From positions 3,395-67,394 of the forward strand of contig JBMNTK010000002.1 in the NCBI GenBank assembly GCA_050945695.1: DNA of 64,000 bases, read 5' to 3'. The notes under the pieces were generated by a model. That model had not been told where the DNA came from and searched no databases. It saw nothing but the letters and a program-made list of their open reading frames with translations. This document shows positions 3,107 through 47,172 of this stretch, piece by piece; position 1 is the stretch's first letter; the number at the start of each line of letters is the position of its first letter. Both the position numbers and the translations under genes were made by a program. Source of the DNA: Anaerolineae bacterium. GTDB lineage: Bacteria; Chloroflexota; Anaerolineae; DRVO01.

Positions 3107-3170
3107 GGGAGCCTCCCCCGTGAATGGTGTGTGGGCATTATACAGAGGGGTCACCGCCGGAGGGGAGGCT

Positions 3171-3226
3171 TCACGCGAAGACGCCAAGCCGCTTGTCCTC
3201 CCGCCCTTGGCGTCTTCGCGTGAGCA
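3171..3226. repeat. REP-like hairpin (17-bp perfect inverted repeat cacgcgaagacgccaag / cttggcgtcttcgcgtg)
   Basis: Read directly. A second diverged copy lies at 3297-3370. Confidence 0.7.
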
Positions 3227-3296
3227 AACCCGCGTCCACGCGCGCCGGTAGGGGCGGACGACCCTGTCCGCCCTCCGGGTGTGCCCTCCTCGGCCG

Positions 3297-3370
3297 GAGC
3301 CTCACGCAAAGACGCGAAGACGCCAAGCCGCTTGTCCTTCTGCCCTCTGCGCCTTAGCGTCTTCGCGTGA
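3297..3370. repeat. Second copy of the REP-like hairpin element
   Basis: Shares cacgcgaagacgccaagccgcttgtcc with 3171-3226. Right arm is cttagcgtcttcgcgtg. Confidence 0.6.
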
Positions 3371-3530
3371 ACCCTCCCTTCTGGGACGACTTGGCGCCTC
3401 TAAGTATTCACGGTACAATAACGTCTACTGGTGCCTCGTTGCTGACTTCCAGGCGTGCCTGGTCGCCCTACCAGTACGGTCGACTCCGTCAGCCAGCCTC
3501 GCGCACAGAGCTCCATCCCGAGGGAATAGT

Positions 3531-5706: not shown

Positions 5707-5803
5707 GCCGATGCCTCCTGACCGACTCGGGCATCGCCCGACGCATTCAGTATAGCGGGCCGGCCGCCGGCATCAATGGGAGGGAACAGTCCCGCTTCCC
5801 CCT

Positions 5804-6883
5804 TTAGGCGCGATCAGCTCGCCCGTCCCACCAGTAAGTGCGGAAGTCCTCCAGGGCGCTGCAGACGGCATCCACGTTCTCGGGCGGCGTGGGCGGGTAG
5901 ATCCCGCAGATGAACTCCAGCCCGCCCGCAGGTGAGCCCAGCTTGCGCACCTCTTCCTCGATCAGCTCGTAGATCTCCTGCCGGGTGCCCCAGGGCACCA
6001 CCGTCTGGCGGTCTATGTCCAGCCGGATGCACATGCGTCCCTTGACCTCACGGGCCAGGTTGTCTATCCCGTTGAGCAGGTCCTGGGGGTTGATGATGTC
6101 CACCCCTGCCTTGGCGAACTCGTCCATGAACTCCATGATGTGCCCATCGCTGTGGAGAGCGACCAGCGCTCCTGCCTCATGGATGGCGTCAATGAGGGTC
6201 TTGTAGGCCGGGGTGACGTAGCGGCCGAACTTGGCCGGGCTGATGAGGGTGGCTTTCTGGGTGCCCAGGTCGTCGCCGAAGTGCATCACATCCACGCCCA
6301 GCTCCAGCCACTGGCGCAGGTAGCGCATGTTCTGCTCCAGGAGGATGTCGATCAGCCGCTGCAGCCTGGGGTCGTCGGTGGCCACGTCCATCATGAAGTT
6401 CTCGAAGCCGCGCAGGTAGTAGAGCCGCATGAAGAGGAAGCCGTGGGGCAAGCTGCCGGCGGCCACCCTTCCTGCTGCTCGAGCCTCCTCGAGCTGCCGC
6501 CGGGCGCCTTCCCAGTCTGCCGGGCCCCGGTCCCACTGAACCAGAGGATCGGGGGGCACGAACGTCTCCAGTGCCTCCCAGTCGGCTAGGGGCGCGTTGA
6601 CGACCACGCCCTCCAGGCCGTCTACCTCGGAATGCCAGATGCAGCCCCAGGCGTCGGTGAAGTACTCACTTGCTCGGTGAGCAGGGCCAAAGTCGTAGGT
6701 CGAGTAGTCAATCTGTCCGGGCACGAAGTTGGGGAAGAGGGTGGGGTGGCGGACCAGCACTTCTTCCAGCTCACGGCCCAGCTGGGCCCGGGAAGCACCG
6801 GAGATGGACACCACTGCCGGGATCCAATCTGGCCCTTGGAAGCGAGCATTGCGCAGGTAGTTTTCGCGTTCGGTGAGTGCCAC
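5804..6883 (-). CDS. Uroporphyrinogen decarboxylase (URO-D/MtaA) family protein, paralog 1
   Basis: N-terminal 'LTERENYLRNARFQGPDWIP' plus a TIM-barrel-length body typical of PF01208. GTG start at 6883 follows AAGGAGAG. Confidence 0.7.
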   Translation of the reverse strand: MALTERENYLRNARFQGPDWIPAVVSISGASRAQLGRELEEVLVRHPTLFPNFVPGQIDYSTYDFGPAHRASEYFTDAWGCIWHSEVDGLEGVVVNAPLADWEALETFVPPDPLVQWDRGPADWEGARRQLEEARAAGRVAAGSLPHGFLFMRLYYLRGFENFMMDVATDDPRLQRLIDILLEQNMRYLRQWLELGVDVMHFGDDLGTQKATLISPAKFGRYVTPAYKTLIDAIHEAGALVALHSDGHIMEFMDEFAKAGVDIINPQDLLNGIDNLAREVKGRMCIRLDIDRQTVVPWGTRQEIYELIEEEVRKLGSPAGGLEFICGIYPPTPPENVDAVCSALEDFRTYWWDGRADRA

Positions 6884-7021
6884 GTCACTCTCCTTATGTG
6901 CTTGCGGGGGTTGGGACCGATTGTCGCCGGCACTGCCGGGCCTGTCCAACCCGGCCTGATCGGTTCGCCAATGGCGCCCCCTGTGCTGTACTCTCAGGGA
7001 CAACCCATTCCAGGATGCTCT

Positions 7022-8290
7022 ATGGCGGACACGGGTACCCAGAAGCGGATCGTGTGGACACTGGCGGCCTGCACTGCGCTGGCGCTCTTCGGGGATACCA
7101 CCCTGTATGCGGTGCTGCCGGCGGAGTACGGCCTCCTGGCCATCAGCGCCGCGCAGGTGGGCTGGCTACTGAGCGTCAACCGCTTGGTCCGCATCCCGCT
7201 GAACTTGATGAGCGGCTGGCTGGCCGATCGGCTGGGGTGCCGGGCCCCGTATATCATCGGCATCGCTGTGGGTGCCCTGTCCACCGCTGCCTACGGCCTT
7301 CTGAGGGGCTTCTGGCCCCTGCTGATCTCCCGGGCGCTGTGGGGACTGGCTTGGTCCCTGCTGACGGTGGCCGCCTATGGGCTGATCCTGGACACCAGCC
7401 CCTCAGACAACCGGGGCCGAAACACCAGCATCTATGACTCCTACTCCTACTTCGGGGGATCCGTGGGCATGCTCCTGGGCGGCTTTTTGGTGGATTGGCT
7501 GAAGCTGCCCCGGGCGATGCTGGTGCTGAGCCTCTTCAGCGCCACCGGTGTCGTGATGGCGCTCACCCTGCCCCGCGTTCCATCACCTTCGGGACGGCCG
7601 GACAGGGCGCCCCGGGAGCGTCTCTCCCTCCGCACGGCCCTGAGAGCGACATGGCAGGGGATGGTCGGGGCCGACCTGCGCTTCTGGGTCATCGCCGCCC
7701 TCAACTTCGCCCATCGCTTTTTCTTTGCCGGCGTGTTCTACTCCACCTTCGGGTTCTACCTGCGTCAGGTGACAGGCGACGAGGCTCACCTGGGGGCATG
7801 GGTCATCGGGGTTGCCTCGCTTACCAGCCTGCTGCTGTTTGCCCGCAACGTCACCACTATCATCACCTCTCCGGCCCTGGGGCACTTGAGCGACCGTCTG
7901 GGCGACCGTGGTCACGTGCTGATCCTGGGTGAGGTGCTGGGGGTGGCCGGCCTGGCCGCCTTCGCGGGCAGCACCTCGCCCGCGTTGATCGGCGCCGGCG
8001 TGTTGCTGGCGGCTGTGGCCTATGGGGTGGTACCCCCAATGCTCGTGGCCTGGCTGGGAGACCTCACGAGCGCTGGGTCGCGGGGACGACACGTGGGCGG
8101 TTACCAGACCGCGGGCGACCTGGGGTCGGGCCTGGGGCCGCTGGTGGCCTATGCCCTGCTTCCAATGATGGGCATTCAGTGGGTGTACGGGCTGAGCGCG
8201 GCCTTCCTGGCCCTGACGGTCCCGCTCATCCTGTGGGCCCGGGCGAGGGCCCCCCGGAAGGGCAAGGCCCTGGCCTCAGAGCCGGCCTGA
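7022..8290 (+). CDS. MFS transporter
   Basis: 12-TM profile and a G-x-L-x-D-R-x-G-R-R-type loop ('SGWLADRLGCR'). ATG at 7022. Divergent from URO-D paralog 1. Confidence 0.75.
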   Translation: MADTGTQKRIVWTLAACTALALFGDTTLYAVLPAEYGLLAISAAQVGWLLSVNRLVRIPLNLMSGWLADRLGCRAPYIIGIAVGALSTAAYGLLRGFWPLLISRALWGLAWSLLTVAAYGLILDTSPSDNRGRNTSIYDSYSYFGGSVGMLLGGFLVDWLKLPRAMLVLSLFSATGVVMALTLPRVPSPSGRPDRAPRERLSLRTALRATWQGMVGADLRFWVIAALNFAHRFFFAGVFYSTFGFYLRQVTGDEAHLGAWVIGVASLTSLLLFARNVTTIITSPALGHLSDRLGDRGHVLILGEVLGVAGLAAFAGSTSPALIGAGVLLAAVAYGVVPPMLVAWLGDLTSAGSRGRHVGGYQTAGDLGSGLGPLVAYALLPMMGIQWVYGLSAAFLALTVPLILWARARAPRKGKALASEPA

Positions 8291-8320
8291 GGAGCCAGGG
8301 CCCTCCCCGGGGTGTCCGGG

Positions 8321-9709
8321 TCAGCTCTCCGGTCCCCACCACTCCGTGCGGGGCAGGAGCCGCTGGCCGTCACTGAAGCCGTCCCCGCGTTCCGCCAGGA
8401 CCTGTACCAGCCGCTGGCGCCACTGAGCCACTTCATCGGGCCGCTCCGCCGCCAGGTTACGGAGCTCCTGCCGGTCGGCCTCTAGGTCGAAGAACTGCTC
8501 CTCGTTCGTGGCCGGGAACCAGATGTACTTGCGCCTGCCGTCGGTCAGGTAGTGCATCCCCGGCTCCAGGGCGTAGCAGGGAGAGTGTTCACCGTGTAGG
8601 AACTCCCGCCAGGGCTCCCCGCGCGCGGCTGCCAGGACGCTTCGGCCCGTCATTCCGGATGGCGGCTCCACTCCGGCCACCTCCAGGATGGTGGGCATGA
8701 CATCCTGCAGGCCCACCACACGGTCGCAGATGCCCTTGGGCCCCTCGTAGCCCTGGGGATAGCCGATGACGAAGGGCACCCGCGCCGAGCCCTCATAGGC
8801 GTAGGTCTTGCGGTGAAGGTGATGGTCGCCCAGCATGTCGCCGTGGTCGGATGTATAGACGAAGAGCGTATCCTGGGCGAGGCGGTTTCGACGCAGTTCC
8901 TCCAGCATGTAGCCGAACTGGAAGTCCACGTGGGTGATCAGGCCCATGTAGCCGATGCGTGCCCTTCGGGTCTGCTCTGGGGTGAGCCGGCCGTACCAAG
9001 CCGTCACTGGCAGCCCGGGCCCGGCCACGTCGTACCGCTTGGCCCAGTCTCCCACCGGCACCGGGGGCTGCTCTCGGTCGGCGTACATGTCCCAGAGGGC
9101 CTGGGGCGGGTCGTAGGGCGAGTGGGGGGCGTGGTGAGAGATCCACAGGAAGAAGGGCCGGGTGGGGTCGCGGCGCCGGATCATGTCCATGGCCACATCA
9201 GAAATCCAGCTGGTGCGGTGGTAGAGCTCGTCCAGGTGCCAGGGGCGGGCCGTCCACCCGTTGGCGTCCACCCCGTGGGAGCGCTCGTGGGCCCAGGGGC
9301 CGAGGCGGGCCTTGAGCCACTCGCGATGGTCCAGTTCGCCCGGGGACACTTCGTGGAAGCCGTAGAGCTTGCGCGCCGGGTGCAGGTTCCGAAAGCCCAC
9401 GTTGAAGCAGTGGTAGCCGTTCTGGGCCAGCACCTGGGCCAGGGTGTTGGGCTCTTGCCATTCGGTGGCAGAGTAGCCGACCAGGCCGCAGTGGTAGCTG
9501 CCCTTGCCGGAGAGCATGACCCGCCGGGCTCCCGTCGTGGATGGGATCTCGGTGTAGGCGTTGGGGAAGTAGAGCCCGTTCTGGATCAGGCTATCGAGGT
9601 TCGGGGTCTCCACGAGCGGGTGCCCGGCCAGGCCGAGGAAGTCGCCTCGCTGCTGATCGGTGGTGAACAGAATGATGTTGGGCCTTGTGGTAGTCATAGG
9701 ATGGGTCAT
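8321..9709 (-). CDS. Sulfatase-family (alkaline-phosphatase superfamily) protein lacking the C/S-x-P-x-R formylglycine motif
   Basis: N-terminal 'PNIILFTTDQQRGD...TPNLDSL' matches the sulfatase fold. Nucleophile segment reads 'IPSTTGARRVMLSG' (TxGxR) instead of CxPxR. Confidence 0.7.
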   Translation of the reverse strand: MTHPMTTTRPNIILFTTDQQRGDFLGLAGHPLVETPNLDSLIQNGLYFPNAYTEIPSTTGARRVMLSGKGSYHCGLVGYSATEWQEPNTLAQVLAQNGYHCFNVGFRNLHPARKLYGFHEVSPGELDHREWLKARLGPWAHERSHGVDANGWTARPWHLDELYHRTSWISDVAMDMIRRRDPTRPFFLWISHHAPHSPYDPPQALWDMYADREQPPVPVGDWAKRYDVAGPGLPVTAWYGRLTPEQTRRARIGYMGLITHVDFQFGYMLEELRRNRLAQDTLFVYTSDHGDMLGDHHLHRKTYAYEGSARVPFVIGYPQGYEGPKGICDRVVGLQDVMPTILEVAGVEPPSGMTGRSVLAAARGEPWREFLHGEHSPCYALEPGMHYLTDGRRKYIWFPATNEEQFFDLEADRQELRNLAAERPDEVAQWRQRLVQVLAERGDGFSDGQRLLPRTEWWGPES

Positions 9710-9727
9710 CTCCTGGCGATCGGTCGT

Positions 9728-10522
9728 CTAGGACGCCCGCTTGGTGAGCAGGTCGAGCAGGTCGTCGGAGGTCACCACTACCGTGCGGCCGGATTGACCG
9801 TTCCCGGGCCGGTAGACGGTGACCATCTCATAGGGCGGCTCCAGCCAGAAGGGGCCGATCTCGTGCCGGCGCTCGATGCCCCGCCGGGCCGCCTCCTTGA
9901 TCCGGGCCCGGGCCACTTCGGGGCTAAGGTGAACGGCAGCGCCATTGAAGACTCGGGCCTCCTCCAGGGTGAGGCCGCTGGCGGAGCCTCGCTTGAGCCC
10001 CTCTTTCACCGCCGCCGTCTCGATGCCGGGCACCAGGGCCTTGGCCTCTTCGCAGACTGCTGCATCTCCGGTGACGGTGACCGTGGGCACGCCGAAGTAG
10101 GCGGCAAAGAGCATGTTCTTGCCCAGCTCGCCCACGCTGACCCCGTTGATGGTAAGGTTCTCGACGATGGAGGAGCCGGTGTGGCTGAGGTGGCCGCCGT
10201 CGGTGTTGGCCTTAGCGTGCTGGCTGATGTTCATGGCCACGTCGAACTCGCCTGAGCAGCCGAAGGGGTAGCCCAGGGGACGGCCGGCAAGCAGCCGTGC
10301 CGCCGGGTGGAGTAGGCGGATGTCAATGGTGCCCGATCCGTGGCCGTCCACGACCAGGATGTCGGTGGCCCCCGCCTCCAGGCAGCCCTCGATAGCGGCA
10401 TTGACCTCGGCGGTGACGAGTTCTCGGGCCACCTGGTAGTAGCGGCTGTCGGGGCCGCCGTAGTCGGCGTGGCTGATTACACCCGCCGCCCCTTCCTGAT
10501 CGGTCATCATGTAGACGCGCAT
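9728..10522 (-). CDS. Peptidase M55 D-aminopeptidase (DppA-like)
   Basis: 'MRVYMMTDQEGAAGV' matches the DppA N-terminal motif M+hY+s.D.EG..G. Chosen ATG at 10520-10522. Confidence 0.7.
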   Translation of the reverse strand: MRVYMMTDQEGAAGVISHADYGGPDSRYYQVARELVTAEVNAAIEGCLEAGATDILVVDGHGSGTIDIRLLHPAARLLAGRPLGYPFGCSGEFDVAMNISQHAKANTDGGHLSHTGSSIVENLTINGVSVGELGKNMLFAAYFGVPTVTVTGDAAVCEEAKALVPGIETAAVKEGLKRGSASGLTLEEARVFNGAAVHLSPEVARARIKEAARRGIERRHEIGPFWLEPPYEMVTVYRPGNGQSGRTVVVTSDDLLDLLTKRAS

Positions 10523-13717: not shown

Positions 13718-13772
13718 GCAGATGAGGAGTGCGCGCTACTAGGCGCACCAGTGTGCACCTAGTAGCACGCAC
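13718..13772. repeat. Long near-perfect palindrome (25-bp arms, 5-nt loop)
   Basis: gaggagtgcgcgctactaggcgcac-cagtg-gtgcacctagtagcacgcactcctc with 2 mismatches. Confidence 0.6.
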
Positions 13773-13916
13773 TCCTCAATGGTGCATGGCCGTGGGTCAC
13801 GTTTCACGCTTCACGCGTCACCTCTGCGCGCGGACTCCCCAATGGGCCACCCGAATCCCCCGATCCCCCTAGCCCCAAGCGAGACCGACCTGTAGAATGT
13901 CAACACTGGAGCGGAT

Positions 13917-21344: not shown

Positions 21345-23084
21345 GTGAAGTCCTGGAAAGCGTCACTCAAGCTGATTGCCTATTACCCGGGGTGGTACGC
21401 CGCCTCGGCCGGCGTTTGGGCTTTGGCCTTCTTCGTTCCCATCGGCACTGGGCTGGCCATGCGGGGGCTGCTCGACCGGTTGGCAGCCGGGCCGGCTACC
21501 CTGGCCAACGCCTGGAGCTGGATCGCGCTCATCCTGGCCATCCGGCTGGGCCGCTCGGTGCTCGACTTCCCGGCCGCCTGGGTATTCGCCCACCACCTGG
21601 GGCGCGTCCGCACCCTCCTGCGCGCCAACCTCCTTCGCGGCTACCTGCGCCGGCTGGGGACCCAGGAGGTGGCGGTGGACGGTGTGGGCGACGCCCTGAA
21701 CCGGTTGCGCGACGATGTGGAGCCCCTGGCCCACCTGGCCGCCGACGACGGGGTGGACGCGTTGGGGCGGGCGGTGCGGCTGGTGGTGATGTTAGGCATC
21801 CTCCTGGCGGTGAACCCGACCGTCACCTTGGCCGTGGTTCCGCCGCTGGTGGGCTGTGCCCTGCTGGCACAGGTGCTTTCGGCTCGGCTGGTCCGCTACC
21901 GCGAGGCCAGTCGGCGGGCGACGGGGGAGATGGCGAGCTACCTCAATGAGATGCTGGGCGGCGTGCAGGCGCTCAAGCTGGCCGGCGCCGAGGCCGCGGC
22001 TGCCGGTCAGTTCGAAGTCCGCTGCGAGGCCCGTCGGCGTGCCGGCCTCCGCGATACTCTGGCCAGTGAAACGGCGGAGCGGGGCCTGGACGGGCTGACC
22101 CAACTTGCCGGTGGGTTGGTGCTGCTCGTGGCTGCGCCCGCCCTGACGGCCGGGACCTTCAGCGCGGGAGACCTGGCGCTGTTCATCTCCTGCGCTGGGC
22201 AGGTGACCGACGTGGTTAGCTTCTTCACCCACATGCTGGTGGTCTACCGGCAGGCGGACGTGTCGGCTGCTCGGCTGGCCGCGTTGGTGCCGGAGGGGGA
22301 GTCGGGCACCATCGTGGAGCGGGGCCCGATCTACATGGATGGCCGCCTGCCCGAGATTCTCCGGCCCGAGCGTACGCCCGATGACCGGCTGCAGCGGCTG
22401 GAGGTGCGCGGGCTCACCTGCCGCCATGCCGGAAATGGCCACGGGATCGAGGACGTGAGCTTCAGCCTGGAGGCCGGCACCCTCACCGTCATCACCGGGC
22501 CGGTGGGCTCGGGCAAGAGCACACTGCTGCGGGCCCTCCTGGGGCTGCTACCCCTGGACGGCGGTGAGGCGCGCTGGAATGGGCAAGTGGTTGAGGACCT
22601 GGGAGGGTTTCTGCGGCCACCTCGGGCGGCGTACGTACCCCAGACGCCGGTGCTGTTCAGCGATACCCTGAAGGAGAATGTCCTGCTGGGGCTGGAGGTC
22701 TCGGACGAGGAGCTGGAGCAGGCGTTGCACGTGGCGGTGCTGGGGCCGGACGTGGAAGTGCTTTCGGAGGGGCTGGAGACGGTGATCGGGCCCCGGGGGG
22801 TGAAGCTCTCGGGAGGCCAGCAGCAGCGCGCGGCGGCGGCGCGGGCCTTGGTGCGCGAGCCGGAGTTGCTGGTGCTGGATGACTTGTCGAGTGCGCTGGA
22901 TGTGGAGACGGAGCGGCTCCTGTGGGAGAGGATTCTGGGTAGAGGGAGGACGGTGCTGGCGGTGTCGCACCGGCCGGAGGTGCTGCGGCGGGCGGATGAG
23001 GTGATCGTGCTCAGGGAGGGGCGAGTGGAGGCGGTGCATAGCGGGGGTATGCGTGAGCCATGGGGGAAGGGCGGACGCGGCTAG
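21345..23084 (+). CDS. ABC exporter, fused TMD-NBD (heterodimer partner 2)
   Basis: Walker A 'GPVGSGKST', signature '[15 protein letters not shown]'. GTG start 3 nt after the upstream stop, with GAGGAG RBS. Confidence 0.85.
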   Translation: MKSWKASLKLIAYYPGWYAASAGVWALAFFVPIGTGLAMRGLLDRLAAGPATLANAWSWIALILAIRLGRSVLDFPAAWVFAHHLGRVRTLLRANLLRGYLRRLGTQEVAVDGVGDALNRLRDDVEPLAHLAADDGVDALGRAVRLVVMLGILLAVNPTVTLAVVPPLVGCALLAQVLSARLVRYREASRRATGEMASYLNEMLGGVQALKLAGAEAAAAGQFEVRCEARRRAGLRDTLASETAERGLDGLTQLAGGLVLLVAAPALTAGTFSAGDLALFISCAGQVTDVVSFFTHMLVVYRQADVSAARLAALVPEGESGTIVERGPIYMDGRLPEILRPERTPDDRLQRLEVRGLTCRHAGNGHGIEDVSFSLEAGTLTVITGPVGSGKSTLLRALLGLLPLDGGEARWNGQVVEDLGGFLRPPRAAYVPQTPVLFSDTLKENVLLGLEVSDEELEQALHVAVLGPDVEVLSEGLETVIGPRGVKLSGGQQQRAAAARALVREPELLVLDDLSSALDVETERLLWERILGRGRTVLAVSHRPEVLRRADEVIVLREGRVEAVHSGGMREPWGKGGRG

Positions 23085-23529
23085 GGCCACAGCGGAGCTG
23101 TGGCTGCCGCCATGCCTAGCCCTGAGGGCCTACAGCCGAGGGTGGACAGCGTTCGATCACTCTACAGGGTGATCGAATGCTGTGGGTCCTCTCGGCGGGC
23201 AGCCAGCGGCCTACTGCGACTTGTTTGCCTTTTCCATCAGCCGGGAAGTAGTGGACCTAGGAAGTCTGTAGCTGCTGTTCACTTGCACTGCGAAGTGCTA
23301 TCATCCCGCCGCCGTTTCCGCAAGCAGTATTGGGATAGGGAGGATACTAGCGCCGGGCTGGAGGTGGCGCCGTGGTTCGTTGTGAACCCCCACCTGGGAG
23401 GGGCTTTCCAAGGAAGGGGCGGCGAAGAAGACCCTCGTCATCGTGCCCTGAGGCCGAGGGAAGGTCTGGGACGACGCTCCCGACCGGGGACGGGTGGTCG
23501 CGGGTAAGCCATACTGAGGAGGAGCCAAC

Positions 23530-24290
23530 ATGGTAGCATCGCCGGTGGTGGACTTGCTCGTCCGACGTGGTGAGGAGCTTCTGGCCCAGCCCAGGTCAGA
23601 GTCGCCGCTCTCAGACATCCCCCAGGTCAACGCGCTGGTGTCAGACATCGAGAACCAGCCTCACGCCTTCGTGCTGGGCTGCCTGATGCAGCGGCAGGTC
23701 CCTTTCGAGAAGGCCTGGCGCGTGCCACATGAGATCCGTGCCCGCCCAGGCAGCTTTGACTTCCCGCGGCTACTAGAACTCACGCCCCAAGCAGTTCAGG
23801 ACCTGTTCCGTAGACCTCCCGCACTGCACCGGTCAACGAAGCGATGGCCGAAGTCTTCTACCGGGGTGTGCACCAGATCGCTGACGAATACGCTGGGGAT
23901 GCCTCGCGCATATGGGCAGGAAGCCCCAGCTGCGATACGGTGCGGCGAAGGTTTCTGAGCGTTCACGGTGCCGGGCCGAAGATCGCATCAATGGCCGTGA
24001 ACATCCTGGTGCGCGACCTGAAGGTGCCCCTCACTGACCGGCGATCCCTCGACGTCGCCCTCGATGTCCACACCCGCCGCGTCCTCAAGCGAACCGGCCT
24101 CGTGCCTGCAGGAGCTGAGGACTCCGAGATGCTCCAGGCTGCCCGCCTGATCGGCCCTGACTACCCAGGGCTGCTTGACCTGCCGCTGTGGGAGATCGGG
24201 CGCGAGACTTGCCACGAGGTGGGGCCTGGTTGCCGGCGCTGCCGCCTGGGCAAGCACTGTCCGAGCGCAGGAAGACGTCGAGGAGGCTAG
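23530..24290 (+). pseudogene. HhH-GPD (endonuclease III-like) DNA glycosylase split by a frameshift near 23825-23845
   Basis: ORF 23530-23958 encodes the N-terminal helical part. ORF 23844-24290, in a different frame, encodes HhH 'VHGAGPKIA', catalytic 'LDVHTRRV..RTGL' and a C-x6-C-x2-C-x5-C [4Fe-4S] loop. Confidence 0.5.
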
Positions 24291-24293
24291 GGG

Positions 24294-25194
24294 GGTGTTC
24301 ACGATCGACGTCCCCCGGGCAAGGCAGGTAGCGGCCGATCTGCTGGCTGCCTATGGGGAGCAGGGGATCTTCGGCAGAAAGGATATGCCGGAGGACCTCT
24401 TGCCGGAGGGGGTGAGGCCGGGCTCGGAGGAGCACCGCCGCTTCGTCACCCTCACGGTGGCCATAGACTACATGCGAAACGCCGACGAGCTTTGGACGGC
24501 GGGCCGACGTACCTACGCGGATCCGCAGACACGCTGCCTCTACGACCCCCACGTGGTGGCCGACACGGGCCTGGCGAAGGTCATCGCCGACATGCAGCGC
24601 TATGGGCTGTCTAGAAAGCCCCAGCAGGATGCCACCACCTGGGCCACCGTCTGCACTACGCTGGCCACACGCTTTGGGGGCCGGGTGGGCGTGCTCCTGG
24701 AGACTGCCGGGACGGACGCGCCCAAGCTTCTCGAGCTGGTGCGCAAGCGCTACGGGGGCGGATTCCCCTTCCTCAAGGGCGCCAAGATTGGTCCCCTGTG
24801 GGTGAGGATGCTGCACGACAACTGCGGGGTCCCGCTCCAGCGCCTGGGCGACATAGCTCTGCCGGTGGACGTGCACACTGCTCAGGCCACGCTGCAGTTA
24901 GGCTGCGTGCGTCCGCTACGGGACAGAGGGCCGATGTCGGCGCTCACGGAGGCGGTGCAGCGGGTGTGGCGCGAGGCGCTGAAGGACAGCCCAGAGGGCG
25001 TCTATCCCCTGAAGCTGGATGAGCCGCTGTGGACGCTCAGTCGCCTGGGTTGCAGAGCCACGCAGACCTGGCCGTGTGGGACGCGTGGGCAGTGCCCGGT
25101 AGCGGCGTATTGCTTGCCGGAGAGGGTATGGCTGCAGGTGGCTGGGAACCCTGGATCCAGCAGGTCGGAGTGGCGTGTGACCACAGACAGGTAG
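24294..25194 (+). CDS. Second HhH-GPD-like putative DNA glycosylase with C-terminal Cys4 cluster
   Basis: 'FLKGAKIGPLWVRML' (HhH-like) and 'ALPVDVHTAQATLQLG' (PVDTHV-type Asp motif). C-terminal C-x7-C-x5-C-x5-C. GTG start after GAGGAGG. Confidence 0.45.
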
Positions 25195-25269
25195 CTAGGA
25201 AGCGAGAACCGCCGGCGTGACACCGGCGGTTCCCCTACCTTGGCTGCTCTGGGTTCAGCGGGCTCCGGC

Positions 25270-25839
25270 CTAGGGCCGACTCAGAATGTGGAGTGTGCTG
25301 TCCTCTTTCTCGATAGCCTCACGTGCCTCTGGTATCAACCGATAGCGCCAGATGCCGCCTACCTTGTCAGACTCCATCATGTGACCGGTGCCTGTCCTAC
25401 CCGGCCGGCCGGCGGTGTCGACTCCGGGAGTGGCCTCGATCCGCCTGCCGAGTGCCCCGAGGATACCCGACAGCTGCGAGTCGCTCAGGCCGAGCTTCTG
25501 GACGAGGTCACGGCGTAAGAGACCGGCATCACCGGCCTCGTACAGTGAAGCGAGGAGCTGCTTGTAGTTCTCTCCCAGCTCTCGTCTATTGAGCACATCC
25601 TGAAGGAATCTCACTAGAGCTGTGCTCCTGTCTGCACCCTTCTCCGCGACCTCATCAACCGGGTGTTGCTCTGCCTCACCACTCCGGGGCTGCCCCCGAA
25701 TCGCAAGAAACTGAGCGTACTCCTCCGGCGTGCCCTCGAACTCAACAACCTTCATGGCAACCTCCCTGGACTCCATTGCAGGTTCCTCCTGCATCCGACA
25801 AGTAACCTCCCGTGCTGCTGCTTCCGCATTACTCGGCAC
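25270..25839 (-). CDS. Hypothetical acidic cytoplasmic protein (low-GC island)
   Basis: 189-aa ORF. 3' part is high GC, 5' part low GC. No recognisable domain; possible wHTH-like segment 'LLRRDLVQKLGLSDSQLSGILGALGRR'. Confidence 0.35.
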   Translation of the reverse strand: MPSNAEAAAREVTCRMQEEPAMESREVAMKVVEFEGTPEEYAQFLAIRGQPRSGEAEQHPVDEVAEKGADRSTALVRFLQDVLNRRELGENYKQLLASLYEAGDAGLLRRDLVQKLGLSDSQLSGILGALGRRIEATPGVDTAGRPGRTGTGHMMESDKVGGIWRYRLIPEAREAIEKEDSTLHILSRP

Positions 25840-26258
25840 CTCCTCAACCTGACATCGCGGTGGCCCTTCGCCCCACTGCTGAAGACAGTTTAGATCATCG
25901 GTACGCGGTTGTCAAGAGGTTCTCACGAGTGCTTTAGCACCAAACGAGGCGCTGAGCAACCGGGGCTCTGCGGGAGGCAGGCCAGAACGGGGCTGAAGTC
26001 CGAGTCGGATGGGAGCCGGATGCGAACCTAGCCCAGGAGGGCAACTGCGTCCACTCTCCGGGCACGGTTCATGCGCGCATACAGAGGTCTAGGCACTAGT
26101 GCGCCTATGCGAGGAGGCGCCTGCGTGATCTCACACAGAAACGTAGGTGCCAGAGCCACTGAGGGCAGTGATTCCAATCACTCCAGAGCATTCGGCTGGC
26201 TAGGGATTTACTCAGCATCGCCCATCGCTGGCTCATATGGAGCTGGTAGGAGATCGGT

Positions 26259-26654
26259 GTGGTCGACCCGGTGGAGGGCTACAAGTTCATCACCTCTCGT
26301 ATCGCAAGCTTCGAGAACAGAATGGGCGAGAGCTTCAACTCCTACATACAGCTATCTTCAGCTGTAGTGGGAGGATACGTTTGGACTAGAACACAACTAC
26401 ATGACTCCCAACTGCTCGGCGTCATCCATGTTCTGGCTCCTGTCTTACTGGTGCTGATTGGGACCAGCACGGTGCTCTTGGTTGTCTTCGATGTTCGCAG
26501 TTGGTGCGGGTACAGAAAGGCCGAGTCGAACCTAACGGGGGGTGCGGCCCCTAACCCTCGATTCCCTGGTTCTATGCTCCAGGAATTGGTGATGATCACG
26601 TTCGTGGTGGTTACCACCGCCCTTGGTGCCTCCTACCTATGGCTGCAATCGTAG
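26259..26654 (+). CDS. Hypothetical small membrane protein (2 TM) in low-GC island
   Basis: 131 aa, with two clear hydrophobic helices. Local GC ~55% versus ~68% background. Confidence 0.3.
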   Translation: MVDPVEGYKFITSRIASFENRMGESFNSYIQLSSAVVGGYVWTRTQLHDSQLLGVIHVLAPVLLVLIGTSTVLLVVFDVRSWCGYRKAESNLTGGAAPNPRFPGSMLQELVMITFVVVTTALGASYLWLQS

Positions 26655-26875
26655 GGAAGAAGGCGCACAGTCGGCCCCGACAGAGGAAGGTCGAGCGGAC
26701 AAGCTAGAGGGCCGGCGGGACAGACGGTTGCGACTCGGCACGCGCTCATGCAGGCGCCTTCTCACAAGAGAGCGCTGGTGCCTAACCCCTGTACGAGCGT
26801 GTGCCGTGTCATAGCCGTCAGTAGCCAAATGTGCGGTGAGGACAAGATGACCTGCACTACAAGCCTCCTCCCCCC

Positions 26876-27649
26876 TCACGCCTCCCGCGTCAGGTCGAAC
26901 CCCTTGATCTGCCGGATGATCCGCACGCACTCGCGCACCGTCACTTCCACGATCCTGGCCCCCTTCTCCGGCGTGGCCAGGTGGGGCCTGCCCACGTACC
27001 CCTTGGGCACCTGGAGGATCCAGTCCACCTTGTACTGCACCTCGGGGATGGACTTCTCGAAGTAGGGCCCCTCCCCCTCGGGCAGAGGCTCCAGCCGGTC
27101 CAGGTGCACCAGCTCCGGCCGGAAGTAGGCCACATTAGACGTCTCGCCCTCGCCCCCGTGCCCCTCCCGCACCGGTGACTCCATGGCATCAGCCGCCAGG
27201 GGGCGGAACTGGCCGATGTTGAGGGCAAAGACGCTGTAGTCCTCCACCCGCTCGTGCTTGAGGGTGTGCAGCAGGAAGTCGAAGCCGGCGTTCACGCCCC
27301 CGTGAGCGACCAGCAGGACGATCTTCCTGAACCCGTTGCGGGCCGCCTCCGAGCACAGCTCGCGCAGGATGTTCACCACCAGGGCCGGTGACATGGCGAT
27401 GGTGCCGGGATAGGCCTTCATCTGGTCATTCATGTTCAGGTACAGCGTGGGCAGGATGATCACCGGCTCCTGCTCGGCGATGAGCTCCGCTGCTCCCTCG
27501 GCCCGGATAGCATCGGTGCCGGTGGGCAGGTGCGGCCCGTGCATCTCCACGCAGCCCATGGGCAGGACGGCCACATCCGTCTCCTGGGCCAGCTCAGCCA
27601 CCTCTGGCCCGGGCATCTCGTGCCACTTGTAGGTGCGACGCTTGGTCAC
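26876..27649 (-). CDS. Creatininase-family amidohydrolase
   Basis: 'VAVLPMGCVEMHGPHLPTGTD' is the creatinine amidohydrolase / MftE-family signature. Confidence 0.8.
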   Translation of the reverse strand: MTKRRTYKWHEMPGPEVAELAQETDVAVLPMGCVEMHGPHLPTGTDAIRAEGAAELIAEQEPVIILPTLYLNMNDQMKAYPGTIAMSPALVVNILRELCSEAARNGFRKIVLLVAHGGVNAGFDFLLHTLKHERVEDYSVFALNIGQFRPLAADAMESPVREGHGGEGETSNVAYFRPELVHLDRLEPLPEGEGPYFEKSIPEVQYKVDWILQVPKGYVGRPHLATPEKGARIVEVTVRECVRIIRQIKGFDLTREA

Positions 27650-27765
27650 CGATCCGCCTCCTCTGGTGGGTCAAGACGCCTTTGCCTCACGCCACGCCAC
27701 GAGGACGCGGCGCTTCCCTTCCTGTACTCAGCGCCTTTGCGTCTCTGCGTGAGGCTCTCCGTTCT

Positions 27766-28842
27766 CTACGCCGGGTTGAGCACCCCTTCCGATCGAGGCG
27801 CCCTCGCCACGACGGCGGCGATCACCCCAATCAGCAGCAAGTCCAGGACCACCAAGATCGCCAGTTCCGGAGCGACGGTAGCGAAGGTGCCGCCCTCCTG
27901 GGTGATCTCGATCAGCGGCCCGATCATGTAGTAGGTGGGGAAGACACGGCCGATCCACTGGGGGATCTCCGGGAACAGGTATACGATCACCGGCGCATAC
28001 AGGAGTAGGCCGGTCCCCTTGATCACGGTGAACAGGGTGTTGATGTCTTTGACGAAGGCGCCGAGCAGGATGCCGACGGCGGCGGCCATGATCGCTCCCA
28101 GCACCAGGGTGACAAATAGGAGCAAGGGCTCGCCGCCCCACGCCCGATTCAGGACGAGGGTGACGGAGACCATGACGATGCTGAGGATCACCCCCAGCAG
28201 CCCCTTGGCCAGGAACACCTCACCAAGCGAAGCCGGCGTGGTGGTAAGCGCCCGAAGGGTCCGCTTCTGCTTCTCTTCCACCAACAGGGCTGCCGGCACC
28301 ACGCCTCCCCCCAGAAACATTGCCATCATCAAGATGAAGGGCAGCAACCGACTCTCCCAGGGTACCGTTGCCCCCTCGCCCAGCGTGGTGGAGACGATCT
28401 CCACCGGCGCCTCTTGACCGGCCAGCTCTCGGATCAGCGTCGCTAGTGTCGAGCCCGTCACGGCCCGGTTACGGAGCGTGCTCTCGCCCCACAGGTAAGC
28501 GGTAAGGGTGGCGGTGTCACCACGCCTGATCTGCTCATCGAAGTCGGCCGGGAGGACGATGCCCATGTCTACCGCCCCAGCGGCGGTGGCTGACCGAAGC
28601 TCGGCGGCGGAAGCGTAGACCTTCACGTCCAGCGACTCCAGGGCCCGAGCCCGGGTCACCAGCTCCGAAGCCCCCTCGTCAGCCAGGCCCAGGCGGGCTC
28701 TGCCCGAGAACACCGTGCCGAAGAGCAGCGACACCACGACGGTGAGCACGATCGGCACTACTACTGCGAAGATGAACATGACGTTGCGCCATCCCTGGCT
28801 GATCTCCTTGCCCAGGAGCACGCCGATTCGCCGCAAGCTCAT
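27766..28842 (-). CDS. ABC-2 family exporter permease with extracellular domain
   Basis: N-terminal TM, ~180-aa extracytoplasmic segment, then a 5-TM ABC-2 domain. ATG overlaps the upstream stop (ATGA). Confidence 0.7.
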   Translation of the reverse strand: MSLRRIGVLLGKEISQGWRNVMFIFAVVVPIVLTVVVSLLFGTVFSGRARLGLADEGASELVTRARALESLDVKVYASAAELRSATAAGAVDMGIVLPADFDEQIRRGDTATLTAYLWGESTLRNRAVTGSTLATLIRELAGQEAPVEIVSTTLGEGATVPWESRLLPFILMMAMFLGGGVVPAALLVEEKQKRTLRALTTTPASLGEVFLAKGLLGVILSIVMVSVTLVLNRAWGGEPLLLFVTLVLGAIMAAAVGILLGAFVKDINTLFTVIKGTGLLLYAPVIVYLFPEIPQWIGRVFPTYYMIGPLIEITQEGGTFATVAPELAILVVLDLLLIGVIAAVVARAPRSEGVLNPA

Positions 28843-45326: not shown

Positions 45327-47125
45327 GCATGCGCGGGGGATTCATGGGCCGGATGCGGGGCCAGGAGGAGAGCTACCGTCTCTCTCAGCTGGACCGGAGG
45401 GCCCTGGGGCTGTTGTGGGGGTACCTGCGTCCCTACCGTGCGAAGCTGCTGCTGGTCCTGGTGGCCCTGGCCGTTCTCACCGGTACCGGCTTGCTGGGCC
45501 CCTATCTGACCAAGGTAGCCATAGACTCCTACATCGCCGTGGGGGACTTGGCCGGGCTGAGCCTCATTTCCTTGCTCTACCTGCTGGTCGGAGGCCTTCA
45601 GTGGGGGGCCAGCTACTGGCAAGGCTACCTCTCCAGCCAGGTGGGCCAGGGCATCATCCACGATCTGCGATCTGACCTCTTCGATCGAGTGCTGCGCCAG
45701 TCAGTGCGCTTCCACCGCGAGGAGCAGGTCGGCCAGGTGATGTCCCGCCTGACTAACGACGTCAATACCCTAGCCGACGCGGCCACCAGCACGTTTCTGG
45801 GCCTGATCACCGACGTGCTGAGCCTAGGTGGCGTCGTGGTCGTCTTGCTGCTGCTCAACTGGCGCCTGGCCCTGGTGACGTTCGTGGTCATGCCCGTGGT
45901 CGTGCTGACCATGGCCCTTATGGGCAGGCGGATGCGGCACGCCTACCGGGATGTGCAGCAGGAACTGGCTGCCGTCAGCGCCGGGGTGGAGCAGGGCGTA
46001 TCGGGCATGCGGGTAACCCAGTCGCTCTCCGCGGAGTCCTACAGCGTGGAGCAGTTTGAGGACCTCAGCCTGCGCAACCTCCGCGCTAACCTGCGGGCCA
46101 GCCTGCTCACCGCTGCCCTGTCCCCTACCATGAGCATCACCGGCAGCCTGGGCACAGCCCTGGTGCTGGGCTACGGCGGGGTGCAGGTGGCGACGGGAGC
46201 CATCACCGTCGGCGTGCTCATGGCTGCCCTGGGTTACGTGCGTCGTTTCTTCGGCCCCTTGCGGGAACTCAGTCTGGTGTACAACACCTTGCAGGGAGCT
46301 GCCGCCTCTTTGGATCGGGTCTCTGACTACCTCGATCGGCCAGTGGAGGTGGAAGAACCGGAACATCCCCAGCGTCCGGCGGGCGGGTTTGTCGGCCGGG
46401 TGGATGTGGATCACGTCAGCTTCAGCTATGGCCGGGAGAAGGTCCTAGAGGACGTTTCCCTGACCATCGAGCCGGGTGAGGTGGCGGCGCTGGTGGGGCC
46501 GACGGGTGCCGGGAAGAGCACCCTCGTGAACCTTGTCACTCGCCTGTACGACGTGCAAGAGGGACGGGTGGCGTTGGACGGTGTGGATATCCGAGATATC
46601 GCCTTCGCTGACTTGCGGCGGCTCATAGCCGTGGTGCCGCAGGACACCTTCCTCTTCGACGGCAGCATTGGTGACAATATACGCTACGCCCGACGCGAGG
46701 CCACCGACGCCGAGGTCGAGGCGGCTGCCCGGCAGGCCCAGGCGCATGAGTTCATCTCCCGGCTGCCCCAGGGATATGAGACTCAGGTCGGTGAGGGTGG
46801 GGTGCGGCTCTCCGGAGGCCAGAAGCAACTGGTCGCCCTGGCCCGAGCCATGCTGGCCGACCCCACCATCCTCATCCTGGACGAGGCTACCTCTCACGTG
46901 GACGCCCACACCGAGGGTCTGATCCAGGCGGGCATGGAGGAGCTGCTGCGCGGGCGCACGGCTCTCATCATCGCCCACCGCTTCAGCACCCTGAAACGGG
47001 CGGATCGGATCTACGTCATGGAGGCGGGGCGAGTAGTCGCCCAGGGCACCCATGAGCAACTGCTGGAGATTAGCCCCACGTACCGCGACTTGGCTCAGAA
47101 GCAGTGGGTGGGGAGTGATACGTGA
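45323..47125 (+). CDS. ABC exporter, fused TMD-NBD (partner)
   Basis: ATG overlapping the upstream TGA, after GGAGGTG. Walker A 'GPTGAGKST', signature 'LSGGQKQLVALARAM'. Confidence 0.85.
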   Translation: MSMRGGFMGRMRGQEESYRLSQLDRRALGLLWGYLRPYRAKLLLVLVALAVLTGTGLLGPYLTKVAIDSYIAVGDLAGLSLISLLYLLVGGLQWGASYWQGYLSSQVGQGIIHDLRSDLFDRVLRQSVRFHREEQVGQVMSRLTNDVNTLADAATSTFLGLITDVLSLGGVVVVLLLLNWRLALVTFVVMPVVVLTMALMGRRMRHAYRDVQQELAAVSAGVEQGVSGMRVTQSLSAESYSVEQFEDLSLRNLRANLRASLLTAALSPTMSITGSLGTALVLGYGGVQVATGAITVGVLMAALGYVRRFFGPLRELSLVYNTLQGAAASLDRVSDYLDRPVEVEEPEHPQRPAGGFVGRVDVDHVSFSYGREKVLEDVSLTIEPGEVAALVGPTGAGKSTLVNLVTRLYDVQEGRVALDGVDIRDIAFADLRRLIAVVPQDTFLFDGSIGDNIRYARREATDAEVEAAARQAQAHEFISRLPQGYETQVGEGGVRLSGGQKQLVALARAMLADPTILILDEATSHVDAHTEGLIQAGMEELLRGRTALIIAHRFSTLKRADRIYVMEAGRVVAQGTHEQLLEISPTYRDLAQKQWVGSDT

Positions 47126-47172
47126 TACGTGACGCGTGAACCGGTCACGAGTCACGCATCACGTATCACGCG
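47117..47172. repeat. Perfectly symmetric heptamer-array palindrome (4x GTGAYRC + 4x complement)
   Basis: gtgatac|gtgatac|gtgacgc|gtgaacc|ggtcacg|agtcacg|catcacg|tatcacg. It overlaps the last codons and stop of the ABC exporter gene. Confidence 0.75.

Follow-up and report, generated by a model that had tools for sequence, protein, structure and literature searches.

We analyzed a 64,000-nucleotide stretch of an Anaerolineae genome (Bacteria; Chloroflexota; contig JBMNTK010000002.1, positions 3,395 to 67,394; hereafter “the window”) and concentrated on a patch of reduced GC content at positions 25200–26900, which lies between an AGOG-like gene and a creatininase gene. Two divergent genes occupy the patch: orfA on the minus strand (25270–25755, stop codon included), which encodes 161 amino acids (aa), and orfB on the plus strand (26259–26654), which encodes 131 aa. 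An earlier reading of the letters of this DNA (“the original prediction”) had described a horizontally acquired two-gene module, such as a toxin/immunity, abortive-infection or small defence system, made up of an acidic protein with a possible winged helix-turn-helix (wHTH) segment and a two-helix membrane protein. Both open reading frames (ORFs) are present where it placed them. The two genes are probably unrelated, and the main interest of the locus lies in the domain family to which OrfA belongs.

The compositional anomaly is real, although smaller than predicted. The patch has a GC content of 0.599 versus 0.663 for the window as a whole; of 1246 overlapping 1.7-kb windows (mean 0.664, standard deviation (SD) 0.021), it is the second lowest, about 3 SD under the mean, and the lowest begins at 25151. 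In 300-nt windows, the trough reaches 0.53 at 26150–26600. The predicted contrast of ~55% against ~68% is therefore replaced by a measured 60% against 66%, and only orfB alone, at 54.5%, comes near the lower figure. Codon usage is atypical as predicted: GC content at third codon positions (GC3) is 0.67 in orfA and 0.66 in orfB, about 2.4 SD under the mean of 0.823 (SD 0.065) over the 59 genes of a crude gene call of the window. The flanking creatininase and AGOG-like genes have GC3 values of 0.92 and 0.82, respectively.

orfA most likely starts at the ATG at 25755, giving 161 aa, rather than at the GTG at 25839, which would give the 189 aa originally proposed, because a GGGAGG ribosome-binding site sits 5 nt before this ATG and homologues have a matching start. 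More than 50 homologues open with the same MK(V/I)xxFEG, the closest of them with MKV(F/T)xF(D/E)GTPEEY; P0002, one of the two close relatives of OrfA, and the family members start at MK(V/I). The in-frame extension of 28 codons at 25756–25839 on the minus strand is seen in no homologue and is probably 5' untranslated region. With this start, the divergent gap between orfA and orfB measures 503 bp, not ~420 bp, and the protein proves acidic as described, but mildly so (isoelectric point (pI) 5.5). On the same strand, a sigma-70-like promoter match (TTGACA, 17-nt spacer, TAAACT; 25887–25915) lies ~130 nt upstream of the start; it is a consensus match only, one site having been found where 0.5 would be expected. 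One strain contig (L003) carries a T > G single-nucleotide polymorphism (SNP) at 25910, in the -35 hexamer of this sole promoter-like match.

Apart from identical copies from the same organism, OrfA has only two close relatives, P0002 (59% identity) and P0004 (63%). Against both, the proportion of non-synonymous differences (pN) is ~0.25–0.26 and that of synonymous differences (pS) ~0.65–0.80; the dN/dS ratio is ~0.2, with dS saturated, far from the value of ~1 named in the original prediction as the mark of a non-coding frame. The sole SNP in orfA across the strain contigs is synonymous. orfA is a real gene under purifying selection.

A profile built from OrfA and P0002 was searched against 1.84 billion representatives and retrieved 331 cluster representatives at E ≤ 1e-3, 80 of them at E ≤ 1e-10 (mostly 140–180 aa). 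From these matches we delimited a family, here called FEGT-wHTH, in which MKxxxFEGTPEE(Y/F) at the N-terminus is followed by a variable linker, acidic or of low complexity, and then by a domain of ~110 residues. An alignment of 83 members shows G97, G100, G103, R104 and R105 to be invariant, and G8, E12, L55, R57 and T109 nearly so. OrfA has all of these features and scores 165 bits against the profile (E = 3.6e-50); its N-terminal motif, MKVVEFEGTPEEY, spans residues 1–21 and is followed by an acidic low-complexity linker (~22–43) and the winged helix (~44–155). Searches of Pfam, NCBIfam, PADLOC and PHROGs gave no significant match for the family, or for OrfA and OrfB themselves, in line with the original statement that no domain was recognised. 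The family has no Pfam model and was undescribed until now.

The wHTH segment suspected in OrfA is borne out by structure prediction. An AlphaFold2 monomer model made with the 83-sequence alignment reached a mean predicted local distance difference test score (pLDDT) of 88.8, redone after an earlier run with 2 sequences (54.6). Its helices span residues 33–56, 62–77, 81–88, 92–107 and 142–155, with a beta hairpin, the wing, at 127–140. The recognition helix (92–107) bears the invariant GxxGxxGRR, and the wing bears WxYR. The best Foldseek matches are regulators of the MarR (NadR 5aip, MepR 4lll, AbsC) and ArsR/SmtB (HlyU 4ooi, NolR 4omz, SmtB) families at E ~ 1e-3 to 1e-2, with MarR proteins at the top (E ~ 1e-3) and TM-scores of 0.6 on the target for HlyU and NolR; a profile search of the PDB gives the MarR-type YetL (7wze) at E = 2e-3.

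OrfA shares with these regulators its small size (~150 aa), its stand-alone form and the order helix, helix-turn-helix, beta-hairpin wing, C-terminal helix, and it has the wHTH fold of the MarR family. Its sequence, however, scores far under the family thresholds: 13.3 bits against MarR_2, where the cutoff is 27. The MarR models (PF01047/PF12802) match 4 of 50 family members at all, with a best E of 1.8e-3, and of the ArsR/SmtB models (PF01022/HTH_20), HTH_20 matches 5 of 50 below threshold (best E = 0.0097), so the likeness to ArsR/SmtB is structural only. OrfA further differs in its glycine-rich, invariant recognition helix, an insert of ~20 residues between this helix and the wing, the additional N-terminal FEGTPEE element and acidic linker, and the lack of a conserved adjacent target gene.

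The same domain recurs in larger proteins. We scanned representative genomes of 185,579 species (GTDB) with a degenerate DNA pattern for GVLGALGRRIxxTxG and obtained 18 loci, 17 of which are true family members; all 17 lie in Chloroflexota, a bias that is partly an artefact, as the pattern favours the Chloroflexota form of the motif. At 10 loci, the OrfA-type domain forms the C-terminus of a larger protein. Three of these proteins are type IV restriction nucleases with GmrSD_N and GmrSD_C (L022, L023, L030). Others combine the domain with DUF7669 and Hypoth_Ymh (L016, L021), with Hypoth_Ymh alone (L020, and L025 by an RNPPMH motif read by eye), with DUF4145 (L026), or with CBS and an RNxxxH motif (L032). 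Among the long family members, 9 of 32 carry Hypoth_Ymh, and others carry GmrSD_N/C, DUF4268, DUF5655, HNH or CBS. Judged by these domain matches, the winged helix of OrfA recurs in fusions with defence effectors, both HEPN and GmrSD.

Both effector classes have been described before. GmrSD enzymes carry variable C-terminal accessory domains, including DNA-binding wHTH domains (PMC4619093). In the Chloroflexota homologues of GmrSD (DUF262/DUF1524; the three loci above and P0038), the OrfA-type wHTH takes exactly the position of accessory domains such as DNA_binding_1; unlike these, it belongs to a different wHTH family that has no model, and the window copy stands alone without a nuclease domain. 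Ymh (PF09509) and DUF4145 are HEPN RNase families of restriction-modification and abortive-infection contexts (Anantharaman et al. 2013, PMC3710099), and many Chloroflexota proteins of these families carry the OrfA-type wHTH, although OrfA itself has no HEPN domain. The Ymh partners listed in that work are pMORC, AbiJ-NTD1 and AbiTii, and the OrfA-type wHTH is not among them. At L016 (5254–6462) and L021 (5909–7072), we observed a recurrent Chloroflexota order of DUF7669, coiled coil, Hypoth_Ymh (HEPN) and OrfA-type wHTH, which is missing from the Ymh architectures of PMC3710099.

Stand-alone members occur in varied surroundings, and no neighbour is conserved across ~20 family loci. Around the closest homologues of OrfA, we found an M41-like HEAGH peptidase, an excisionase-like HTH protein and an endonuclease-bearing helicase fragment at L001, whose upstream side is lost at the contig end, and a ParA-like ATPase, a PIN/MazE pair and a convergent HEPN_Cthe2314-like gene at L011. 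Assorted housekeeping genes adjoin the family gene at L035–L037. Four loci have a tandem paralogue (L014, 5446–6459; L017, 3–855; L029, 6598–7726; L034, 4502–5459); it precedes the family gene, has no FEGT element at its N-terminus and diverges in the recognition helix (GRMLARLAQRVRRTPG), and the copy upstream at L029 appears frameshifted. At L013, a 378-aa protein without a Pfam match (1125–2261) lies directly downstream of the OrfA homologue P0011; the Anaerolineae locus L012 has the same P0011 and the same called downstream genes, but no gene was called in the interval that holds the 378-aa protein.

The family also travels on mobilizable and conjugative plasmids: with tblastn, full-length members were detected on four plasmids of Alphaproteobacteria. 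On Paracoccus tegillarcae pBM151 (L041), the member is clustered with ArdC (ArdcN + MPTase-PolyVal), a Phd/VapC pair and an integrase. This cluster (5762–9731) consists of DUF1403/HTH_13, a second small HTH protein, several tiny hypothetical genes and ArdC; it adjoins Phd/VapC, the integrase and repABC, and resembles an establishment or anti-restriction region. On Sphingomonas taxi STP2, the member lies directly downstream of the TraA relaxase, and two Sphingobium plasmids hold members, with a resolvase adjoining the one examined, NZ_CP047223. Stand-alone members thus keep company with ArdC, a relaxase or a resolvase as small plasmid-establishment genes do. The window copy, unlike these, is chromosomal with no plasmid genes nearby, and the family is not known to have anti-defence activity. 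A phage origin was also considered and dropped: INPHARED genomes gave no match to the OrfA family, and two motif patterns drew a blank in IMG/VR.

The MarR/ArsR-like fold raises the possibility that OrfA is an ordinary MarR-type local repressor, either of orfB or of the operon that encodes the creatininase and an ABC-2 transporter. The arrangement would suit such a role, as orfA is divergent from orfB over a long intergenic region, a classic regulator-target layout, and the Anaerolineae homologue at L012 is likewise divergent from an ABC-2 operon. The ABC-2 operons of the window and of L012 are not orthologous, however (identity is 39% between the ATPases, and the permeases show essentially no relationship), and on this ground we rejected the ABC-2 operon as a target of OrfA. 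A shared operator was rejected as well, since no motif is common to the sequences upstream of the three closest homologues. The family has no neighbour in common, and the score of OrfA against the Pfam MarR model is far too low (13 versus 27 bits). Finally, the GxxGxxGRR helix is unusual for operator-specific regulators; its invariance across the family suggests a target common to all members. We regard local repression as unlikely.

orfB looks like a real coding sequence. An AGGAG Shine-Dalgarno motif (26248–26252) lies 6 nt before its GTG start, as such motifs do before 21 of the 27 gene starts surveyed (orfA and orfB included), and the frame is 3-periodic (chi2 = 24.6, p = 4e-4, higher than in 1000 of 1000 shuffles), whereas the flanking intergenic DNA is not. 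The two-helix membrane protein of the original prediction is upheld by hydropathy, with transmembrane (TM) helices predicted at residues 52–77 and 109–129; among the 166 window ORFs of 100–200 aa, orfB is the only one with at least two TM-like segments. Among 5.8 billion clustered proteins, OrfB has no homologues other than identical copies, and phages and plasmids gave no match. On present comparisons it would be a lineage-specific protein with two TM helices, not a conserved partner of OrfA.

These comparisons bear directly on the idea that the two genes form one horizontally acquired system, with the membrane protein as effector and the wHTH protein as regulator or antitoxin. The idea is attractive at first sight: the genes are a divergent pair in one low-GC patch, their GC3 values are alike (0.66–0.67), the OrfA domain is found joined to defence effectors in other proteins, and small membrane proteins are common as abortive-infection effectors. 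It fails on comparison of neighbourhoods. orfB is an orphan in every collection searched and is absent beside the ~60%-identical OrfA homologue at L011 (the L001 contig breaks off on the upstream side). Neither with these closest homologues nor across the ~20 loci does an OrfA family member have a similar small membrane protein gene as a recurring neighbour. Neither protein matches a Pfam toxin domain or a PADLOC-DB v2 model at E ≤ 1. A 503-bp gap between genes on opposite strands implies separate transcription units, and compared with type II toxin-antitoxin systems, the pair shows no co-occurrence in ~20 loci and no toxin domain. The module proposed in the original prediction thus finds no conserved pair to rest on, and we judge a two-gene system to be highly improbable.

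A further possibility concerns orfB alone: it might be non-functional, a chance open frame in a decayed insertion at 26080–26794 that resembles a miniature inverted-repeat transposable element (MITE) or a repetitive extragenic palindromic (REP) element, with imperfect inverted repeats, and that lowers the local GC content. An imperfect inverted repeat of 39–49 nt does bracket orfB. In its 39-nt form, the left arm lies at 26090–26128 and the right arm at 26746–26784, with 30 of 39 positions complementary, and it closes a predicted RNA fold of 26080–26795 (z = -5.6). The repeat ranks fourth among those of the window, and in none of the three above it are the arms more than ~230 nt apart. The GC minimum falls inside the segment so bounded, orfB is an ORFan, its only SNP is non-synonymous (N27K), and we estimate that ~0.5 ORFs of at least 131 codons would arise by chance in ~1.1 kb at this GC content.

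Against these points stand the 3-periodicity in frame and the well-spaced AGGAG, as well as the two clean TM helices that no comparable ORF shares. The repeat itself is equivocal: its score of 21 exceeds all of 100 shuffles (13.1 ± 1.2) under +1/-1 scoring but is not significant under the stricter +1/-2, and a local hairpin has the right arm at its apex. This hairpin, an imperfect palindrome of ~100 nt at 26720–26822 between the convergent orfB and creatininase gene (inverted-repeat score 19), is strong in its own right (-67.4 kcal/mol, z = -3.6; none of 200 shuffles folds as stably); a terminator-like or REP-like element is the simpler interpretation. Reading the flanks of 26080–26794 revealed no target-site duplication, and no further copy of the repeat occurs in the window or in the metagenome contigs. 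A MITE-like origin, while possible, is unsupported, and we think it quite unlikely that orfB is the by-product of such an insertion. Several independent assemblies of the same strain have contigs that start near 25874–25957 or end near 26819–26836, just outside orfB and the repeats. We weighed these breaks as a sign of strain heterogeneity, but with ~10 contigs they may reflect chance or low coverage.

The flanking direct repeats and integrase remnants that the original prediction proposed to look for were not found, and compared with a genomic island, the patch shows atypical composition with no tRNA anywhere in the window, no direct repeats and no recombinase among the annotated neighbours. 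Over 22500–28000, Rfam gave chance-level matches only at E ≤ 1. Pfam had no match for eight ORFs in other frames of the patch, so no pseudogene is hidden there. The patch is present in all contigs from at least 9 samples, each at least 99.9% identical. A search of the metagenome contigs with the creatininase protein for synteny returned no relatives, and exact-protein look-ups of both flanking genes found the same strain only. The evidence for mobility comes from the family: the plasmid contexts, the fusions and the low GC3 (family genes are GC3-poor versus their own neighbours at L001, L011 and L012) suggest that it is part of a mobile, conflict-associated gene pool, which makes a horizontal origin of orfA plausible, though unproven for this locus. 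Of the acquisition claimed in the original prediction, this part survives for orfA only; that the two genes arrived as a unit is unsupported.

Taken together, we hold with moderate confidence that the patch is a small piece of flexible genome with two unrelated genes and that OrfA is a stand-alone FEGT-wHTH regulator or sensor/adaptor. As its fold, fusions and contexts suggest, OrfA would contact nucleic acid with its recognition helix and wing. The invariance of that helix throughout the family suggests a target feature shared by all members, not an operator specific to one gene, and OrfA may act as a monocistronic regulator or sensor/adaptor in the traffic between mobile elements and host defence.

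Several observations weigh against this account. The wHTH domain is not basic (pI 6.6), and its invariant glycine-rich helix could equally be a protein-protein surface. Many family members sit amid ordinary housekeeping genes, and the apparent concentration in Chloroflexota is in part a product of the DNA pattern, as noted above. orfB could be a functional partner of OrfA in this lineage only, despite having no homologues. Around the patch there are no direct repeats, and no mobility gene or recombinase is found among the annotated neighbours within ~8 kb; recent acquisition is not demonstrated, every sampled copy of the organism having the patch.

A bolder proposal, to which we give very little weight, is that stand-alone FEGT-wHTH proteins act in trans to modulate those HEPN and GmrSD effectors in which this winged helix is also present. 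Such proteins might serve as plasmid-borne decoys or heterodimerising inhibitors that blunt host defence, or as free sensor subunits that recruit effectors; in either case, the invariant GxxGxxGRR helix would recognise a common nucleic-acid feature specific to invaders, or the partner domain. If true, this would make the family a new defence or anti-defence domain common to Chloroflexota chromosomes and alphaproteobacterial plasmids.

Taken by itself, the locus is of modest interest, with an orphan gene that looks like a regulator and an ORFan, and the undescribed domain family is its useful by-product. The defence-module reading of a low-GC divergent pair, however attractive, does not withstand the comparison of neighbourhoods. 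To our knowledge, the defence biology of Chloroflexota is almost unstudied, and here a domain without a model repeatedly forms the C-terminal part of defence nucleases of two unrelated classes in this phylum and occurs free on plasmids of another. If the domain is a target-recognition or regulatory module of these effectors, it offers a handle on what they sense, and the plasmids would then hold a free copy for their own purposes.

Several minor features of the window were also recorded. A perfect 10-bp GC-rich stem with a 7-nt loop (GAACCGCCGG ... CCGGCGGTTC; 25206–25232) lies in the gap where the AGOG-like gene and orfA converge; it is terminator-like without a T run (z = -2.8 on the minus strand), and its Rfam match is at chance level. 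Of the four strongest inverted repeats in the window, the three besides the one around orfB are at 3157–3384, 13723–13778 and 47115–47169 (scores 26, 22 and 21); the first spans ~230 nt and the other two are local hairpins.

Upstream of the patch, two overlapping ORFs in different frames, 23530–23958 and 23844–24290, match consecutive parts of one HhH-GPD base-excision family (TIGR03252, positions 6–78 and 88–141), which by sequence comparison points to a frameshifted gene. The shift is not a read error, since independent assemblies (L002, L007) agree on the sequence, and the gene could be a pseudogene or subject to a programmed shift. Its GC3 of 0.71–0.75 is also under the window mean.

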